DNA from: an uncultured Holophagales bacterium
GTDB taxonomy: Bacteria > Acidobacteriota > Thermoanaerobaculia > Multivoradales > UBA5704
Assembly (NCBI GenBank): GCA_963842525.1
Contig: CAWJGT010000023.1
Span: 352,001 to 416,000 of the forward strand
Direction of reading: 5' to 3'
Length of the DNA: 64,000 nucleotides
Part shown: positions 1-47,734 of the stretch, one piece after another
Position numbering within the stretch: position 1 is the stretch's first letter
Layout of the letters: each line of letters opens with the position of its first letter
Made by a program: the position numbers and the translations under genes
The notes under the pieces: model-generated
The model's database searches: none
What the model saw: only the letters and a program-made list of their open reading frames with translations
Told to the model about the DNA's origin: nothing

Positions 1-1
1 C

Positions 2-1888
2 CGTTTGCTCCAGACGCTGGAGGGCCATCCAGGTGGAGCGCTGTCAGTCGCCTGGGCGCCAAACGGAACACGACTGGCTTCCGGTGGTCGTGACCAAATG
101 CTTCGGCTGTGGCGTCCGGGCCACCACCAACCTGAGCTCGTCCTACAACACAATCAGGGCGATGTTTACGCGGTCGCATGGTCTCCAGATGGGAAGTTAT
201 TGGCTGGCGCTTCTGATAAAGTCCGAGGTTGGGATTCAGAGAGTGGCCAGTTGATCTTTGAGTTTGGAAAGAATGCAGGAGCAGCCGCGTGGTCTCCCGA
301 CGGCCAGCAACTTGCCGTCAGTACCAATGACCACATCATCCTTTGGAATCTAGCAGCAAGGCAGTCCGTCCTATCCTTCCATGCTCACCAGAAGCCTATC
401 ACTGCTCTTTCATGGTCTCCCGACGGTCGGTTATTAGCATCTGCCTCCCTCGACGATACAGCCGGGCTCTGGAATACAGTAGATGGCACGCTCATCCAAT
501 CCCTTGCCCATCGGAGCTGGGTCTTGGATGTTTCTTGGGATTCCAGAGGTGGGCAACTCGCCTCGGCCTCGGACGATCAAAGAATCCGAATCTGGGATTC
601 AGTCACAGGAAAGCTCATCCAATCTTTTGCGGGTCATGGATCTGCCTTCCATGCTGTGTCCTGGTCTCCAGAAGGAGGGCGGCTTGCGGCAGGCTCCGAC
701 GATGGCCAGATTGAGATCTGGGACGTCGAGGCCGGTCTTTCTGTTCTCGTATCGCAGAGCTCTCGGACTTCCGCTCACATGATATCTTGGGACCACAATG
801 CTGCACGCCTTGCCTCCTCCTCGGCAGATGGAATTCGGATCTGGGACTCTCGAAGCGGAAAAGTAATACTCAGCCGACAAGAACCAGCAGGTTATTATTT
901 TTGGATACCGGATGGAGAGAAACTACTCGCTATCGACTTGCTTTATGGAGAAGTCAGGATCTGTGATATAAGCGAAAGAGAAGACGTGATTCTCAGGTCT
1001 TCGCGAAAAGGAAGCTATAAGCCCCCGTTCGTCGCCTTCTCTTTATCTCCTGACCATCATTGGTTAGCATATGGCGATTTCCAAGGCCTTATGTATGTCG
1101 GCAAAACCGCGGACCATGCTAGTCTGCGATCTATAAAAAAACACAATAGTTGGGTCCACGCTATCGCTTGGTCCCCTGATGCAAATCTTATAGCTTCCGC
1201 CGCTTCTGAGCCTACCATCCAGATCTGGGAACCCAGTTCCGGGAGAAGCATTCATACACTCTTGGGGCATGAGGATATGATTGGGGTTCTTGCCTGGGCC
1301 TCAAATGGAGCCTTGCTTGCTTCTGCTTCAACAGATGCAACAGTCCGGCTCTGGGAGCCCGTCTCCGGGCAGTGTCTCGCAACCCTGGAAGGTCACCTGA
1401 GCGCTGTTGTAGCCCTCTCGTGGGCATCCGACAACGGCCGGCTCGCGTCCGCTTCCGTCGATGGGACAGTCCGTCTTTGGGAGCCGAGTTCCGGTTCACC
1501 TCTCCATACCCTCGACGTCCCCGCGCCCATTGACCTGGAATGGTCCCCCGACGGAACGCGAATAGCGGTCACATCAAATCGTGGGTTTATAGAGCTATGG
1601 AACGTCGCCACCGACCCACCTCGCCCTCTCGGCCGGCTCTATCAGACCCCGGACGGCACCGGCTTTGCCGCCACGCCGGACGGCTACGTTTCCGGCCCGC
1701 CGGAGGCGCTCGAATGGGTGCGCTGGGGTGACGGGTGGGCACTCTATGATCTGACGGATGTGCCAGATCGGCTGTCGCCCGAGCGGGTCGCAGCAGCACT
1801 TCGGGGTGAAGGCCTTCCGACAGGTAGGCGAAGACGAGGGGCTGTCCCTACGAAAGCGTCCCGGCGGCGGCCAAAGCCAGGGGGCTGA
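2..1888 (+). CDS. WD40-repeat beta-propeller protein, 5'-truncated by the window edge (probably the C-terminal part of a STAND/NACHT-WD40 protein)
   Basis: About 13 repeats of the form GH...V.A.AWSPDG..LASAS.D..IR.WD; ORF is open from the window start. Confidence 0.9.
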   Translation, partial: RLLQTLEGHPGGALSVAWAPNGTRLASGGRDQMLRLWRPGHHQPELVLQHNQGDVYAVAWSPDGKLLAGASDKVRGWDSESGQLIFEFGKNAGAAAWSPDGQQLAVSTNDHIILWNLAARQSVLSFHAHQKPITALSWSPDGRLLASASLDDTAGLWNTVDGTLIQSLAHRSWVLDVSWDSRGGQLASASDDQRIRIWDSVTGKLIQSFAGHGSAFHAVSWSPEGGRLAAGSDDGQIEIWDVEAGLSVLVSQSSRTSAHMISWDHNAARLASSSADGIRIWDSRSGKVILSRQEPAGYYFWIPDGEKLLAIDLLYGEVRICDISEREDVILRSSRKGSYKPPFVAFSLSPDHHWLAYGDFQGLMYVGKTADHASLRSIKKHNSWVHAIAWSPDANLIASAASEPTIQIWEPSSGRSIHTLLGHEDMIGVLAWASNGALLASASTDATVRLWEPVSGQCLATLEGHLSAVVALSWASDNGRLASASVDGTVRLWEPSSGSPLHTLDVPAPIDLEWSPDGTRIAVTSNRGFIELWNVATDPPRPLGRLYQTPDGTGFAATPDGYVSGPPEALEWVRWGDGWALYDLTDVPDRLSPERVAAALRGEGLPTGRRRRGAVPTKASRRRPKPGG

Positions 1889-2094
1889 GCCAGGTTTCCG
1901 CCGTCCACGCCCAACCCATAGACAAGCGGCCCCCGATCCCCCTGTGGCGGACTGCATCGGGAAAGCTGCCGACTGTGGCGGGAGTCTCGTTGCCGCCGCT
2001 CCCCGCCCTGAGGCTCGCGGTCGGTTTCGCATCGACCCCGAGCCTCGTCTCGCCGACCCAGGCCGGCAGCTCATTGACCGTGATCAAGGTCTCG

Positions 2095-41743: not shown

Positions 41744-42220
41744 ATGACCGAAGCGATGACCGAAGCGATGACCGAGCCGGTGGACGAGCAACTGCAGGCG
41801 ACGCCGAGCGCCGAGGCGCGGGCTGACCAGCCGCAGCCGCTCGAGCTGGGCGAGTTGATGGTGGCGCTCACCGCAGACGATGTCGAGCGCAGCTTGCACT
41901 TTTATGCCGATGGATTGGGGTTCACCGTCGAAGAGCGCATGGAGAAGGACGGCAAGCTGCTCGGCGTGATGCTCGTCGCCGGGGCATGCCACCTCGGGCT
42001 GTCGCAGGATGACTGGGGAAAGGGGCGCGATCGGAAGAAGGGGATCGGGTTCCGCATGTTCGTCGACACGATGGACCAGGACCTCGACGCGCTGGCGGCG
42101 AGGTTCCGCGAGCAGGGCATCGAGGTCGATGGCCCCAAGACCGAGTCGTGGGGCGAGCGGGCGCTGACGGTGGAGGACCCGGACGGGTTCAAGCTGACCC
42201 TGAACCGCAAGCCTTCCTGA
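41744..42220 (+). CDS. VOC/glyoxalase family protein
   Basis: DVERSLHFYADGLGF, SWGERALTVEDPDGFKL; start lies in a 12-bp ATGACCGAAGCG repeat. Confidence 0.85.
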   Translation: MTEAMTEAMTEPVDEQLQATPSAEARADQPQPLELGELMVALTADDVERSLHFYADGLGFTVEERMEKDGKLLGVMLVAGACHLGLSQDDWGKGRDRKKGIGFRMFVDTMDQDLDALAARFREQGIEVDGPKTESWGERALTVEDPDGFKLTLNRKPS

Positions 42221-42509
42221 GCCGGGCCGACTCTCACGCCGAGGGCGCTCGTCGGCACCGTGCTCCTCGTCGCCGCGGCGCTCCGCAGGGTCCCCGTCGC
42301 CTGGCCGCAATGGGCCAAGGCCGCGGCCTACGGAATCGGCACGATGGCCACTTTCTGGTTCCTGCAGAGAGAGCCGCCTCGCTGATGTGATCAGCGGTTT
42401 CTGCCTGCGCGCTGGCTCGCCATGGACTGGAGGCCGCACTCTTTTAGGTGAGGGCCACGTGGGCCCTCACCCGAACGATGCAGCGTTCTCCCTATGGAGG
42501 ATCGGCGAC

Positions 42510-42686
42510 GTGAAAAAACAGCGGCCTGTCAAGAAACTACAGCTCAGCAGCGAGACCCTGCTCCGTCTCAACCAGCTCCCGCTCGTGCAAGGCGGAGGGT
42601 TCGCGGGCACCCTGACCTTCGAGGGGACCTGCGAGAACTCCCTTTGCCCTGTTTGCACGGAGCTGTGCACCGGCGACACGCAGTAA
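42510..42686 (+). CDS. Orphan lanthipeptide-like precursor 3 (58 aa)
   Basis: GTG start with GGAGG RBS; MKKQRPVKKLQLSSETLLRLNQLPLVQGG-GFAGTLTFEGTCENSLCPVCTELCTGDTQ. Confidence 0.7.
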   Translation: MKKQRPVKKLQLSSETLLRLNQLPLVQGGGFAGTLTFEGTCENSLCPVCTELCTGDTQ

Positions 42687-42727
42687 CGGAGGCACTCATA
42701 GATGTAGATATTGATGGAGGAAAACGA

Positions 42728-43006
42728 ATGCGACTCACCTACTCGAACCCGTCCATCCGGCGTCTGGCGCTCGTGCTCGCGCTGGCGCTCGCCTCCTCGG
42801 CACTCGTGCTGCTCGTTCCCGGTACCGCCAGCGCGGCCTGCGCTTACGATTTAGAGGTCCGGACCTACTACTACAGCGACCCGGAGCTGACCAACTTCGT
42901 CGGCCAGTGCTTCAAGGCCTGTTGGTCGGGGACGACCTGCAGCGGCGAGCAGACCGAATACTCCCAGATCGTGAGCGTGCGTATGTGCCCCCCGCTCTGC
43001 CAGTAG
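42728..43006 (+). CDS. Small secreted Cys-rich protein (DUF6289-like)
   Basis: Signal peptide; YYSDPELTNFVGQC..AC.....CSGEQTEY. Confidence 0.65.
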   Translation: MRLTYSNPSIRRLALVLALALASSALVLLVPGTASAACAYDLEVRTYYYSDPELTNFVGQCFKACWSGTTCSGEQTEYSQIVSVRMCPPLCQ

Positions 43007-43096
43007 CCACCGGGCGCGGACCGGGGCGGGTGCCAACGTTGAGAGCGCCCCGCGTCCTACGCCCATAGGTGCCAGGGGAACATCCGGGGAAGGCCG

Positions 43097-43190
43097 CGGG
43101 AAGCGGCGGACAAGCTCAAGGCTGGCGATCGCAATGCCCGGTTTCCGACAGGGAGCTTTCCACCTCATCTGCCGTTCGTCAGCGATCAGC
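43097..43190 (+). pseudogene. Possible C-terminal remnant of a Y1/RAYT-like transposase
   Basis: Reads REAADKLKAGDRNARFPTGSFPPHLPFV, resembling the FP.G.FPP tail of such transposases (from recall only). Confidence 0.4.
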
Positions 43191-43224
43191 CTCCCCAAAC
43201 AACTCTTGACGGGACCTCTATCTT

Positions 43225-43930
43225 GGAGAGCTTGTATCGTCTTGGCGGAGCTTACGGCGTCTCCGGGCAAGCTTGCGTTGTCTGGGCGGAGCCTGCGTTG
43301 CTTCAGCGAAGCTTGCGCCGGCTCGTCGCGAGCTTCTGGCGCCTTGGCGGAGCTTGTGTCGTCTCGGCGGAGCCTGCGGCGTCTCAGTGCAAGCTTAGGT
43401 TGTCTTGGCGGAGCTTGCGTTGTTTCAGCGGAGCTTGCGCCGGCTCGTCGCAAGCTTGTTTCGTCTTGGCGGAGCTTGTGTCGGCTTGGCGGAGCTTGCG
43501 GCGTCTCAGTGCAAGCTTACGTTGTCTTGGCGGAGCTTGCGTTACCTCAGCGGAGCTTACGCCGGCTCAGCGTAAGCCCCGCTGGCCCGATGTAAGCTCC
43601 GCTACGCCAGTGTAAGCTTACATCGGCTCAACGTAAGCTCCGTCAGGCCGTTGTAAGCTCCGCTGGCTCAATGCAAGCTTACGCTGGCTCAGCGTAAGCT
43701 CCGCTGGCCCGATGTAAGCTCCGCTACGCCAGTGTAAGCTTACATCGGCTCAACGTAAGCTCCGCCAGGCCGTTGTAAGCTCCGCTGGCTCGATGCAAGC
43801 TTACGCTGGCTCAGCGTAAGCTCCGCTGGCCCGATGTAAGCTCCGCTACGCCGGTGTAAGCTTACATCGGCTCAACGTAAGCTCCGCCAGGCCGTTGCAA
43901 GCTCCGCTGGCTCGATGCAAGCTTACGGCG
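43225..43930. repeat. Mirror-symmetric array of 35 AGCT-centred cores at 20/20/21-bp spacing (61-bp and 122-bp higher-order periods)
   Basis: Cores at 43229, 249, 270, 290, 310, 331 ... 880, 900, 920; left arm GCGGAGCTTRC, right arm GTAAGCTCCGC. Confidence 0.95.
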
Positions 43931-43950
43931 GCTCAGTCTGGGACCTCGGA

Positions 43951-43976
43951 CGGGGCGGGGGAAAAACCCCGCCCCG
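43951..43976. terminator. GC-rich hairpin downstream of the 44005-44520 gene
   Basis: CGGGGCGGGG-GAAAAA-CCCCGCCCCG, a perfect 10-bp stem; no clear U-tract. Confidence 0.45.
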
Positions 43977-44004
43977 CCGCAGGGACTTGCAGGAATCCGG
44001 GGCC

Positions 44005-44520
44005 TCAGCCCAACGGTGCGAGCGCTCGGGCCAGCGCGATCCTGCCGCTGTGCTCCAGGGCGATCCCGCCAGCCGCGTCGTACAGCCAGGAAAGATCCCG
44101 GGGCGCCGAGAGCAGCGCGTCCACGACGTTCAAGGCTGCGGCCACCTCCTCGTCGAAGAGCCGGAGGTGACCGACCCGCTCGCCGGAGCGGAAGAGCGGA
44201 AAGCCGTGCTCGTCCGGGTCCGGGCCAAGCCGGTACCGGCGCTCCCGGCCCGTGCCGGGAAGGATCGCCGCGGCGAGCTGCGCGACGTCGAGACGGTTGA
44301 GGATGGCGAAAGGTGCGTCGCGGTCGAGGCTCTCGCCCTCGCGCAGCAGGGCGAGCCAGCCGGACCTGGTGGCTTCGAGACGCCACGGCCCGGCCGTGTC
44401 GGCCTCGCCCGCGGTCAGGGGCTCGTCGCGCTCGGCGAGGAGCGCGAGGTACTCGGAAGTGAAAACCTGGGTGGGAACAGCAGCGGACGGACGGGTGCTA
44501 CCATCAACAGAGTTGCGCAT
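44005..44520 (-). CDS. Hypothetical protein (171 aa)
   Basis: ATG with AAAGGAG RBS; GC3-rich codon use; ERDEPLTAGEADTAGPW motif; no recognised domain. Confidence 0.75.
   Translation of the reverse strand: MRNSVDGSTRPSAAVPTQVFTSEYLALLAERDEPLTAGEADTAGPWRLEATRSGWLALLREGESLDRDAPFAILNRLDVAQLAAAILPGTGRERRYRLGPDPDEHGFPLFRSGERVGHLRLFDEEVAAALNVVDALLSAPRDLSWLYDAAGGIALEHSGRIALARALAPLG
44496..44504 (+). promoter_or_regulatory. Extended -10 promoter element, antisense to the 44005-44520 gene
   Basis: TGCTACCAT (TGn-TAnnaT) inside codons 6-9 of the opposite-strand gene. Confidence 0.5.
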
Positions 44521-44592
44521 GGGACGTTGACTCCTTTGCGTGACAGGGCTCGGGTGAGCTTCCGACTCACTCGGGCCCGCCTTCCTGGTTTT
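44511..44592 (+). ncRNA. Putative cis-antisense sRNA (~80 nt) covering the start codon and RBS
   Basis: Follows the -10 element; contains anti-RBS CTCCTTT; ends in a 13-bp hairpin (44546-44578) fully paired only on the + strand via two G-U pairs. Confidence 0.5.
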
Positions 44593-44778
44593 CAGCTCTG
44601 GCCGGAACCGCTCCGGCCGCATCAGCCAAAGACACTGCGGGTCCTTTTCAGATCCGTCTCGGGATTCCTGTCGCCTCACCTCCTCTCGCGGGTTGTTGCG
44701 CTGTACTACTGCCCCCGAGAGTAGGAGAAAAAATAGCGGGAGTCAATACTTCCCGCGCACTTCTCAAGACTCAGAGAT

Positions 44779-47734
44779 TCAGAGGTCAGAGCGAAATGGG
44801 GACAGCACAACCCGAAATCCGATGAAGTCGACCCAGGCGTCCAGGTCGAACCTGATGCGGGCGGCACAACGGACATCCTCGGAGCTGAAGTAGAACGCGC
44901 CGCCACGCAACACGCGGAGGCCGTCTACCGAGAGAGCCTCGCGCCGGGCCCGCTCCTTCGACCGAGCCGGGTAGGGATATGGCCTATACAGGCTTCGAGT
45001 CCATTCCCAGACGTTCCCGCTCATCTCCTCGCAACCGTACGGGCTCGCTCCTCCCGGAAAGCAACCCACAGAACTCGGGGTTCCGATCCCGCTCTCGTCG
45101 AAATTCGCCTGCTCCGGGTCGGGCTCCTTCCCCCACGGGTAGATCCGACTCTCGGCACCGCGAGCCGCCTTCTCCCACTCCGCCTCCGAAGGCAACGTCA
45201 CCCCCAACCGCCCCGTGGCCAACCCCTCCCAGAAGTCGTTATCCTCCGCCAGACTCTGCACCCGGACCGCCGCGGTCTCCCGCAGGCGCTCGTCCAGCCA
45301 GCCGCAATACGCCAGGGCGTCGTGCCAACTTACTCCAGTGACCGGGTTGGTCGAGGGACCCGCCAAGCTCCAAGGATCGGCTGTATACGAGGTCTGCTCG
45401 ATGAAGCTCCGGAACTGCTGCACCGTCACAGGAAACCGCGCCAAGTAGTACGCCAGTAGCTCGACTTCATACGCCTCATTCCCCATCAGAAACGATCCGG
45501 CCGGGACGTGGACGAAGCCCAGGAGCGGCTCCTGCGGCAGGAACCACGCCTCCGCGTTGAACCGCGGGTCCCCGAGACGGCTCAGGACTTCACCGGCCTG
45601 CGCCCGCTGGACCGGCGCTGCATTTTCACCACGCATCGTCCGCAGCAGCGCTTTGACTACCATCTGTCGGCAGGCCGGCGTCACACCGCCAGATCCGGCG
45701 TCCACGACCGCACGGCCCGCCAAAATGACCGCCTGCCCCGGTGTGCCGGGCGCCTGGTCCAGAAGCGACTGCACCACTGCGCTCGCCGCTTCGTCCCGCC
45801 GCTGGCCGATCCCCAGGTACCCGATGGTCAGGAGGATCACCTCGTGCCAGGGCGCCTCGTCCACATGCCCGGCCAGCGCCTCCACCACCGGCCCGATCTC
45901 CTGCTGCCCGAGCTGCGCCAGGGCGACCGCCGCCAAGTACTCCTGGAAGGTCAGGTGAATGAAACCGTACTGGCGGCCGCCCCGGTCGAGGAGCAGGGCG
46001 GCGTGGCCCCGCACGTCCTCCAGGAACTGCCGGGTCGCCCGCTCCGGGTCCTGCTCGCCCCGCTCCCGGTAGATCCGTTCCAGCTCCTGATGCAGGTCCC
46101 ACTCCTTGACCAGGCCCACGCCCGGCGACGTCCGGTGCATCCAGAGCGCCAGCGGGGCCAGGATCTTCAGGGTCTCCACCAGATCCAGGTCGCGGGCGGC
46201 CCGGCCCTCCAGGCTCCGCACCAGGTTCCAGCTCCGCAGCAGCGTTTCCACGTAGGTCTGGTACAGCTCGACACGCCGCTCAGGAAGGGTCACCCCTTGC
46301 CGTTTCATCAGGGCCAGGATGGTCAGCAGCAACGGGTTCGCGGCGAGCGACCGCACCCCAGGGTTGCGCACGGCGGCGAGCAGCTCTTCCTGCTCGCGCT
46401 GCGCGTCGAGGGCGGCCTTCTTCGTGTCCCCCGCCGCCGCGCGCTCCAACGCGGAGGTCCACTTCGCCACGAAGGCCTGAATCTCCCTGTCGTCGAAGTC
46501 CACCAGCGTGCCTTCGACCAGCCCTTCGGCGGCAGGCCGGACCTCCCGGTAGCCCACGATACGGCTCGTAAGGACAAACTTGTTGCCCTGCTTGCGGTAG
46601 AGCTCGTAGAAGTCCCGGACCCGCTCCACCACGGTATTGCGCAGGCCCAGGTCCCGGACCTCGTCCAGACCGTCCAGGAGAAACAGGACGCCGCCCCGAG
46701 GGGAGCTCGCGCTCGAGGAGGGCGTCGAGGGGCAGGTCGAGGCCCCGATGCTCCTGGTGGTAATGGGGAAGGAAGCGGCCGAGAGGGATGTCCTTTTCGG
46801 CAAGGGCATTGGCATAGGCGGAAAGCGGGAGGAGCACCGGCAGGCGGTCTGCCAGGCCCAGAGCCTCGCCCTGGGCGAGAGTGAGGGCCAGGTATTTGAG
46901 AAAGGTGGTCTTTCCCGATCCCGGATCTCCCAGGAGGACGAGGCCGTCGTGGCTCTGCAGGAGATCCAGGACCGGCTGCGGCTCGCTGAGCTTCCGGCCG
47001 ATGGCGTCCGCTTCGTCCTCAGTGGGCTTCCTGCCGGCCAGGCGGAGACGCTCCCAGGTCTCACCCTCGGGCGTCTCCAGGCGGGCCTTCAAGGGAACGT
47101 ACATCTCCAGCAGGGGGAGCCGGATCGGTACGCGGTCCGAGACGCCGAAGCCCTTGAAGTCCAGATAGCGGTAGCGCTCGACGAGGTGGGCGAGGTACCG
47201 CTCCCGAACCTGGACGAGGTCGGCGGCCGGGGCTCGGCGGGAGCCCTTCGGCTTGCGGTTTCTCCTCTTCTCGAGATTCCGCAGAGCCGCCACCACCTTG
47301 GTCGCCAGAGCGTCGGGATTGGCGTCGAAAAAATCGACAGTCGCTTCCTCCCGGACCCGCTGGCGGAAACGCTCCAATCGCTCGTAGAGCTCGTCCGGCT
47401 CGCGCAGGCTCCGCGGCAGCGGGAAGTCCTCCGCGGACAGGAAGATGAGCCGGGGGATTCCCGCGGCACCGGCGGCCTCGTATTCGCGCTCCGTGAAGGA
47501 GGTCTGTGAGCCCGGAGGTGAGCTGCCGTAAAGGCCTCCAACGAGCCCCACGAGCACGTCACACTCGGCGACCTTTTCGCGGCAAAGAGCGTCCGGCACC
47601 TGGTCGCGTGCCCCGAAGTCCTCCATCCGGACGCACGTGCAGTCATCGCAACGCTGGATCGCGCGGTACACCGCATCGCGGTAGGGACCGAGATCGCGGG
47701 CCGTGGAGCTGAGGAAGACCTTGATGGTAGACAT
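44779..47734 (-). CDS. DUF4062 + NACHT NTPase + FGE-sulfatase (C-type lectin fold) protein, frameshift near 46695
   Basis: [22 protein letters not shown]; Walker [10 protein letters not shown]; Walker B LLDGLDEV; NPLLL; [12 protein letters not shown]; [28 protein letters not shown]. Confidence 0.9.

Follow-up and report, generated by a model that had tools for sequence, protein, structure and literature searches.

Two-turn-phased palindromic repeat arrays behind genes of an unassigned protein family in Holophagales and related Acidobacteriota

What might be the role of some 700 bp of intergenic DNA in which a short, dyad-bearing core returns 35 times, about every two turns of the helix? This question is raised by an array at positions 43228–43923 of a 64,000-nucleotide stretch of DNA (hereafter the window) from an uncultured Holophagales bacterium of the phylum Acidobacteriota (GenBank assembly GCA_963842525.1, contig CAWJGT010000023.1, positions 352,001–416,000 of the forward strand). 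The array, which has no strand of its own, consists of 35 units of 20 or 21 bp and sits between convergent genes, 82 bp behind a gene referred to here as P1 (44005–44520, read on the minus strand from 44520 to 44005), which has a good Shine–Dalgarno sequence and encodes an acidic protein of 171 amino acids that belongs to no known family and is predicted to form a homodimer. A first, sequence-only reading, made by a model without database searches, had proposed either a bipolar platform for protein polymerization or wrapping (centromere- or nucleosome-like) or the template of a long structured or processed RNA. As set out below, the array is real, non-coding, and far from chance, and it belongs to a class of arrays in related genomes that share the length of the unit but not its sequence; tentatively, we favor its interpretation as a double-stranded DNA platform for cooperative protein binding.

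Each unit combines a conserved core of about 11 bp (AGCT or AGCC with their flanks) with a variable linker of 9–10 bp, and the units are arranged hierarchically into 61-bp triplets and these, in turn, into 122-bp higher-order repeats. A search for AGC[TC] within 43200–43950 returned exactly the 35 cores (43229 to 43920; 32 AGCT and three AGCC) and nothing besides, with core-to-core distances of 20, 21, 20 | 20, 21, 20 and so forth in 34 of 34 intervals, as the sequence-only reading had described (mean unit 20.33 bp, or 20.34 bp after Fourier refinement). Elsewhere in the window, a stretch of 706 bp contains 7.6 AGCY on average and 17 at most, and 11 of the window's 14 AAGCTT sites fall inside the array. 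The information content over the 35 units amounts to 1.7–2.0 bits at five core positions and to 0.1–1.2 bits elsewhere; the linkers are variants of three types, and those of the sub-units have diverged to about 50 % identity while the cores remained invariant. Tandem Repeats Finder (TRF) accordingly reports periods of 20, 41, 61, and 122 bp for this array.

The cores fall into two arms of opposite polarity, which, like the center between them, have no strand assigned. In the left arm (units 1–17, 43228–43565), the asymmetric cores carry the half-site GCGGAG 5′ of the AG|CT dyad, whereas in the right arm (units 18–35, 43567–43923) they stand in reverse-complement orientation, that is, with this half-site 3′ of the dyad; the second half-site, CTTRC, is common to both arms. 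Palindrome-like cores, with CTTRC on both sides, are found in units 3, 6, 9, 12, and 15 of the left and units 20, 23, 26, 29, 32, and 35 of the right arm, and the 21-bp step precedes them in the former and follows them in the latter. Position 43566 proved to be the best mirror center of all those tried, and in this register the 343 positions comprise 218 Watson–Crick pairs, 61 G–T, 21 A–C, and 43 transversion mismatches. The linker motif GGCTC/GTCTC, by contrast, is always found on the plus strand (six times in the left arm, ten times in the center and right arm), and its complements occur in the array solely in two GGAGCC cores. At a lag of 122 bp, self-identity reaches 97.2 % in the right arm, which is made of three near-identical 122-bp copies, and 87.7 % in the left arm (at lag 20, about 0.53); because the 122-bp copies are so alike, amplification appears to have been recent. 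The polarity flip near 43566, the palindromic character of every third core with the mirrored place of the 21-bp step (seen in dyad-centered units), the uniform orientation of the linker motif, and the threefold near-exact 122-bp unit had all been described from the sequence alone and were reproduced here. The same is true of the non-coding nature of the array: a coding repeat is excluded by 4–11 stop codons in each of the six frames and by a period of 61 bp, which is not a multiple of three. A fold-back artifact of assembly is unlikely as well, judging from arms that are merely 64 % complementary.

Does the array stand alone, or is it one of a kind that recurs in other genomes? A profile scan with the P1 alignment, covering one genome per species, identified 202 relatives, and 78 loci (1.19 Mb) were fetched, all of them from metagenome-assembled genomes (MAGs) of Thermoanaerobaculia, Holophagales, or unclassified Acidobacteriota, with up to 12 loci in one MAG and seven each in two others; the window's own genome is not among them (best identity 61 %). 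In these loci combined with the window (1.25 Mb), TRF detected 51 tandem arrays of at least 100 bp, in 44 of which the unit is about 21 bp or some multiple of this length (periods of 20, 21, 41–43, 61–64, 83–86, 119, and 126 bp). Despite unrelated sequences, the Fourier-refined unit measures 20.75–21.30 bp in 15 of the 20 arrays that adjoin P1 genes; the window array (20.34 bp) and four others at 19.4–20.3 bp form a short-unit tail. With higher-order periods of 61, 64, 83, and 85 bp, the mean stays close to two helical turns, and since neither these nor a period of 43 bp are multiples of three, the class as a whole is non-coding.

In sequence, the arrays are mostly unrelated to the window array and to each other, the few matches being other P1 flanks, and no motif shared across them was found when the P1-linked arrays were compared. 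The orientation of the cores varies likewise: among 22 arrays, seven are strictly unidirectional and others interleaved, the window array being bipolar and alone in its clean mirror symmetry. To judge from these comparisons, unit length is conserved across the arrays, whereas sequence and mirror symmetry are not. Similar arrays with a unit of about 21 bp thus do exist behind P1 genes of other genomes, and of spacing and symmetry, both of which the sequence-only reading had expected homologous arrays to retain, only the spacing did so. A second array lies within the window itself, at 2115–2474, with periods of 63 and 126 bp (3 × 21) and palindrome-containing units, directly after a WD40-repeat gene (2–1888, plus strand); there is no other P1-like gene in the window, and since this array lacks a neighboring P1, such arrays therefore also occur away from it. 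Literature searches, which reached parts of the sources, turned up no account of an Acidobacteria gene family accompanied by phased arrays of about 21 bp.

The association with P1 is nevertheless a conspicuous one. A profile search of the 78 loci and the window gave 91 P1 matches, 90 of them full-length, and an array starts 0–700 bp after 20 of these 90 genes, while 70 are without one. In an autocorrelation scan (lag 19–22, threshold 0.58), which is independent of TRF, 33 segments were delimited; 18 of them have their start in the 600 bp behind a P1 gene, a zone that makes up 4.4 % of the sequence, compared to one within 600 bp upstream of P1 and about 15 in the remaining 95.6 % of the sequence. 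The location of arrays behind P1 3′ ends is therefore non-random, even though about half of the arrays of about 21 bp do not adjoin P1, and P1 copies situated in conserved housekeeping surroundings, behind murB or in a cluster with psd and a CDP-alcohol-transferase gene, are mostly without an array. The 80 nucleotides after the stop codon fold with a median of −38.5 kcal/mol for P1 (n = 76) as compared to −28.6 kcal/mol for the other genes of these loci (n = 624; p = 3 × 10^−16). Among the loci examined, no second gene was found to be conserved beside the arrays, their neighbors being ordinary chromosomal genes that differ between loci, and two small open reading frames (ORFs) by arrays upstream of P1 turned out not to be P1-like. 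In one locus (L042, 10673–11488), a gene with an AbiEii domain (the nucleotidyltransferase toxin of type IV toxin–antitoxin systems) is located between P1 and an array of 21/42/63 bp about 1.1 kb downstream. P1 genes are often found a few hundred bases from a contig end in short-read MAGs (e.g., L015, L026, L066, and L076). The arrays may break assemblies and, if so, the share of 20 in 90 is probably an underestimate.

A closer look at related loci shows how short-lived the arrays can be. Over 20 kb, locus L007 shares 90–93 % identity with L008 and L005, but its homology to L008 breaks off a few bases past the P1 stop codon and returns only after 256 bp in L007 and 48 bp in L008. The 48 bp of L008 are a plain terminator hairpin, while the 256 bp of L007 represent an array with units of about 21 bp and an unrelated palindromic core, which occupies the exact place of the terminator hairpin in L008 and L005. 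Similarly, 246 bp in L013 face 62 bp at the equivalent place in L042, the syntenic loci L063 and L064 (flanks 80–86 % identical) carry unrelated arrays at one spot, and an array that is not linked to P1 measures 645 bp in L039 as opposed to 93 bp in L043. Paralogous P1 copies within a genome share the gene, 140–250 bp upstream of it, and at most the terminator, but not the array, with the youngest pair (L020/L026) as an exception in which the array is shared. From these alignments, turnover of the arrays is evidently very fast.

How, then, is the array best understood? Our preferred, albeit tentative, answer is that it constitutes a double-stranded DNA platform which presents sites on one face of the helix for cooperative protein binding. 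It would be a fast-evolving, cis-acting tandem array with a dyad or half-dyad core at intervals of two helical turns, which amount to 20.33 bp in the window array and about 21 bp in its relatives, and all 35 cores would face the same side of the helix. This geometry would lend itself to a dimeric protein that loads cooperatively and side by side, forming a filament of about 700 bp, which in the window array may be composed of two head-to-head halves meeting at 43566. The location directly behind a strong terminator of the P1 family and between convergent genes hints at a structural role at the gene end, conceivably as a roadblock, a boundary, or a nucleation site for a nucleoid protein. That a protein binds the array, which protein this may be, and what its binding brings about we infer. 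The reading draws on strict phasing, conserved cores, and variable linkers over 35 units; the cores are far better conserved than the linkers, as protein sites would be expected to be, and the free orientation of the cores fits protein sites on duplex DNA rather than base-pairing between units. The unit of about two turns that is common to all arrays likewise points to a property of duplex DNA, and a consistent strand preference is lacking (the P1-sense strand folds better in 10 of 21 arrays, the antisense strand in 10, with one tie). Of the bipolar polymerization or wrapping platform that had been proposed from the sequence alone, the spacing and the conservation of the cores thus stand, while mirror symmetry is not conserved (seven of 22 arrays are unidirectional) and a wrapping phase of A/T is not seen.

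Several observations weigh against a protein-binding platform. Among the loci examined, no conserved DNA-binding gene was found beside the arrays, and in the absence of a common motif no single sequence-specific reader can therefore serve all arrays. The most obvious candidate, the protein encoded at 44005–44520, had been put forward as a possible binder, but it is acidic, as are all 90 P1 proteins (isoelectric points of 4.35–5.88), and nearly identical P1 proteins accompany unrelated arrays (148 of 160 residues identical in L034/L051, 153 of 171 in L024/L020, and 156 of 175 in L012/L009) or, in the orthologues of L007 and L008 (144 of 156), an array in one case and a plain hairpin in the other. 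P1 is therefore not a reader that co-evolves with its array, and its role as a cognate, sequence-specific one is ruled out. The A/T signal is not in favor of a platform either: across 20 arrays, the first harmonic is strongest in five, the second in four, the third in six, and the fourth, as in the window array, in five, and intrinsic curvature through A/T phasing at about 10.5 bp is unsupported by harmonics that are spread this evenly. A nucleosome-like arrangement is likewise disfavored, with A/T not preferentially phased at about 10 bp in the 20 arrays, and a centromere-like one fails, with neither partition nor histone-like genes nearby. Finally, the comparisons between close relatives show that the arrays are dispensable, and core conservation could stem from copying bias instead.

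The last point leads to the explanation that competes best with a protein-binding platform, namely a non-adaptive, self-propagating repeat, which we consider possible, if on the whole rather unlikely. A palindrome beside a very strong terminator would seed amplification by slipped-strand mispairing or unequal exchange, the core would survive as misalignment anchor, and the arrays would be expanded, replaced, and lost in quick succession, aiding termination at most incidentally. The presence/absence patterns and wholesale swaps between close orthologues (L007/L008, L013/L042, L063/L064, and L039/L043) are well accounted for in this manner, as are the very recent amplification suggested by the 122-bp copies in the window and the position of the L007 array exactly at the hairpin site of L008 and L005. 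The stronger folding after P1 stop codons would, moreover, explain the enrichment at P1, and tandem repeats in prokaryotes are generally enriched downstream of stop codons, according to the accessible part of a report on the subject (PMC12418385). However, slippage alone gives no reason for a unit fixed at about 21 bp across unrelated sequences, nor for cores that stayed invariant while the linkers of the old sub-units drifted to about 50 % identity. The L007 array, furthermore, shares nothing with the hairpin in whose place it stands and therefore did not grow from that hairpin, and arrays are strongly enriched at P1 (they follow about 20 of 90 genes, with only some 15 of 33 segments in the other 95.6 % of the sequence).

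An RNA element appears unlikely but has specific features of the window array on its side. Here, the plus strand would be transcribed towards a G+C-rich hairpin with a 9-bp stem (43952–43975, no strand assigned) that is situated between the P1 stop codon and the array and resembles a terminator for the minus-strand gene, and the product, an imperfect arm-to-arm duplex of about 340 bp or a chain of small hairpins, might act as a structured, processed, or sponge RNA. For the plus strand, a single long hairpin of −467.8 kcal/mol is predicted (20 shuffles, z = −19), as compared to −404.6 kcal/mol (z = −10) for the minus strand, and 279 of the 343 mirror positions can pair if G–U is allowed. G–U pairs outnumber A–C mismatches 61 to 21, or 11 to 3 when counted by independent consensus positions; the repeats inflate the former count, however, and 11 versus 3 is not significant alone. 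The same-orientation GGCTC linker, which breaks the mirror symmetry of the DNA, can pair with itself through G–U, and the P1-sense strand of a related array, that of L016, has stems capped by UUCG loops. On the other hand, no sigma-70-like promoter was found within 42400–44900, the covariance models of Rfam 15 gave no match at E values up to 1 on either strand of 42000–45000 (whereby a known structured RNA family is set aside), and a search of seven related loci with Rfam returned one tRNA only. Shifting the register by 61 or 122 bp hardly impairs the pairing, so that no unit-specific covariation is discernible; the better-folding strand is, as mentioned, inconsistent relative to P1; the seven unidirectional arrays of the 22 cannot pair unit with unit; and for several arrays, folding is no stronger than that of shuffled G+C-rich sequence. 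A duplex would also leave unexplained why five core positions are invariant when the linkers drifted. The proposal of a long structured or processed RNA may thus hold for the window array alone, given its folding and its excess of G–U, but does not extend to the class.

If not as a sequence-specific reader, could P1 be involved in another way? The family is sizable and lacks any assignment: a word-indexed protein search listed 81 relatives, the named ones of which derive from Thermoanaerobaculia and Acidobacteria MAGs, and an exhaustive profile search collected 722 cluster representatives (clusters at 50 % identity). P1 has no match in Pfam, PADLOC, or PHROGs, and its one match in NCBIfam (EutK, 15 bits, E = 0.017) is far below the cut-off of 218; a sequence search against the PDB gave no match and the ESM Atlas no usable one, and the longer relatives have no added Pfam domain (14 scanned). 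The family is also absent from 72,556 plasmid and 50,697 phage records. An AlphaFold model based on an alignment of 113 sequences is confident (predicted local distance difference test, pLDDT, 92.9; predicted template modeling score, pTM, 0.78), for which Foldseek found no PDB chain at E values up to 0.001; an earlier, weaker model had found nothing in BFVD. As a homodimer, P1 scores 0.64 (best of three controls, 0.00); the mark was reached by 20 of 30 proteins solved as one-chain pairs and by one of 23 solved as single chains, counts that apply only roughly here in view of the custom alignment; between the dimer runs, at least 97 % of the contacts agree, and the pLDDT of the partner is at least 77. 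The modeling thus supports a symmetric, intertwined homodimer. The best-conserved motif of P1 is acidic, its N-terminal tail is basic and disordered, and a conserved His-x-His or Tyr, the signature of Y1/HUH enzymes, was not found.

In several members, two P1 domains are fused in tandem; these proteins are 340–400 amino acids long and show two matched stretches. In nine loci (L038, L039, L043, L047, L048, L049, L065, L071, and L074), two P1 paralogues are situated 4–6 kb apart on the same strand within a conserved cluster that also holds genes for a phosphatidylserine decarboxylase, a GNAT acetyltransferase, and a CDP-alcohol phosphatidyltransferase. This gene context hints at an ancestral link of P1 to the metabolism of phospholipids or of the envelope and not to DNA.

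A P1-dependent system, in which the P1 dimer would be a sequence-independent reader or maker (a "ruler") of DNA phased at 21 bp and the array its nucleation or storage site in cis, is distinctly unlikely. It would be in accordance with the specific enrichment of arrays at P1 3′ ends, with the finding of P1 and arrays in this lineage only among the collections searched, with a confidently predicted fold that has no solved relative, with the modeled symmetric dimer, and with the basic, disordered tail. However, the family is acidic throughout, including its best-conserved motif, 70 of the 90 P1 genes have no array (among them most of the "core" copies at murB and in the phospholipid cluster), and about half of the arrays of about 21 bp, including the one at 2115–2474, lie away from P1. 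In its boldest form, which we deem quite unlikely, the idea would be that Thermoanaerobaculia and Holophagales possess a "ruler" that writes or selects two-turn arrays of arbitrary sequence, preferentially at the 3′ ends of genes for the uncharacterized, dimeric P1 family with its new fold, with the period rather than the sequence as signal and with P1 and array as the two parts of a hitherto unknown chromatin-like or repeat-generating system. A plasmid- or phage-type partition centromere or iteron origin that has become chromosomal is exceedingly improbable: helically phased tandem sites by a small gene do resemble sopC behind sopB, parC of pSK41, and iterons, but the neighborhood contains no gene for ParA, ParM, or TubZ, for ParB, ParR, or a ribbon-helix-helix protein, or for Rep, the neighbors are ordinary chromosomal genes that change from locus to locus with up to 12 loci per genome, and the plasmid and phage collections gave no relevant match (for the array DNA, one irrelevant plasmid match of 97 bp at 75 % identity and none in phages).

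Consistent with this, Pfam and NCBIfam scans of 18 and 8 neighboring ORFs, respectively, detected no partition, Rep, or cas domains, at variance with the centromere-like role that had been suggested, and the context of the related loci is chromosomal (e.g., murB and mutS). The closest parallels in habit are repetitive extragenic palindromic (REP) sequences, whose units measure 30–40 bp, alternate regularly in orientation, and are dispersed in hundreds of copies per family. In enterobacteria and pseudomonads, REP clusters or bacterial interspersed mosaic elements (BIMEs) are regularly spaced extragenic palindromes with associated RAYT transposases, as described in the accessible part of PMC2817692. 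Like these, the arrays are extragenic, usually located at gene 3′ ends, and tied to a particular small gene with repeat-bearing flanks; in both, the palindromic units are short, G+C-rich, and regularly spaced, and relatives are polymorphic for them. Unlike them, they have a unit of about 21 bp, no regular alternation, and a sequence of their own in each case, and P1 has neither the Y1-transposase (HUH/RAYT) signature nor a Pfam match. Dispersal as in REP families was not observed: outside the array, core 9-mers turn up in the 64 kb only as single matches at chance level, and array sequences recur elsewhere in the 1.25 Mb at a few other P1 flanks only.

In anatomy, the array is closer to centromeres and origins of plasmids. 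The parC site of pSK41 consists of 20-bp repeats that are wrapped by ParR. The centromere of plasmid F, sopC, is made of tandem repeats behind sopB (PMC2910045, in its accessible part). With both, the array shares many short dyad sites in strict helical phase beside a small gene, sequences that are free to diverge between systems, and, as a proposal, the cooperative coating of one face of the DNA; it differs in having no partner nucleoside triphosphatase (NTPase) or recognizable centromere-binding fold, in being chromosomal and multi-copy, and in the combination of near-identical P1 proteins with unrelated arrays. Iterons of theta plasmids are direct repeats of about 17–22 bp, roughly two turns apart, in groups of three to nine units (e.g., incA behind repA of the plasmid likewise named P1). 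The two-turn unit, the position by a gene, and the grouping by orientation are common ground, whereas the array has no Rep gene, 35 units, palindromic cores, and a sequence that is hypervariable between orthologues. An analogy may also be drawn to the higher-order-repeat satellites of eukaryotic centromeres, in which old, diverged sub-units (here, 20/20/21 bp) are embedded in recently homogenized repeats (here, 61/122 bp), with one conserved core per unit resembling a protein box and rapid turnover between relatives; at 0.7 kb and in a bacterium, however, the likeness is one of analogy only. In type III toxin–antitoxin systems (ToxIN-like), the gene for an endoribonuclease toxin is preceded, on its own strand, by a repeat array, and a terminator separates the two; such a system was rejected for an array that is downstream of P1, a P1 protein without match in PADLOC, Pfam, or PHROGs, and close P1 orthologues that have no array. 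The repeats of CRISPR arrays are 23–55 bp long, with unique spacers of similar length and cas genes nearby, and do not agree with a core of about 11 bp, non-unique linkers of 9–10 bp (three types), and the lack of cas domains. The array is thus centromere- or iteron-like in its anatomy and REP/BIME-like in its genomic habit, with the defining features of each missing, and we classify it as a variant of the extragenic, phased palindromic repeat array.

Should the phasing be functional, these arrays would be a bacterial case in which the period of a repeat, and not its sequence, carries information, and would offer, in a poorly known phylum, natural material for the study of cooperative protein filaments or of boundaries on bacterial DNA. 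If they are instead non-adaptive, they still represent an unusual, lineage-specific bias in repeat-unit length that calls for a mechanistic explanation. In either case, they mark a hypervariable site and, being replaced wholesale between genomes that are 90 % identical, lend themselves as strain markers; they also likely cause contig breaks in MAGs of this group. The P1 family, with its 722 clusters and a confident model that has no solved relative, is a new target in itself.

As for the surroundings, the genes of the window are typical of a large environmental genome and encode, for example, a Ser/Thr kinase, TPR and PQQ propeller proteins, STAND NTPases, an FGE-sulfatase domain, and giant cadherin-like proteins; G+C contents range from 64 to 76 %, with 64 % in the array region. 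On the far side of the array, a small ORF (42725–43006, plus strand) with a signal-peptide-like N-terminus and a Cys-rich C-terminal half is a candidate gene that has neither a match in NCBIfam or PADLOC nor a conserved equivalent in the other loci. A STAND NTPase gene (44779–47734, minus strand) is seemingly split into two overlapping frames, of which the upstream one (46280–47734) encodes DUF4062 and the NACHT P-loop and the downstream one (44779–47064) the rest of NACHT and the FGE-sulfatase domain; this could be due to a frameshift, a pseudogene, or a sequencing error. Finally, the region of the WD40-repeat gene (window positions 1–2000) has a G+C content of 57.8 %, below the 64–76 % in the rest of the window, which suggests that this gene may have been acquired horizontally.

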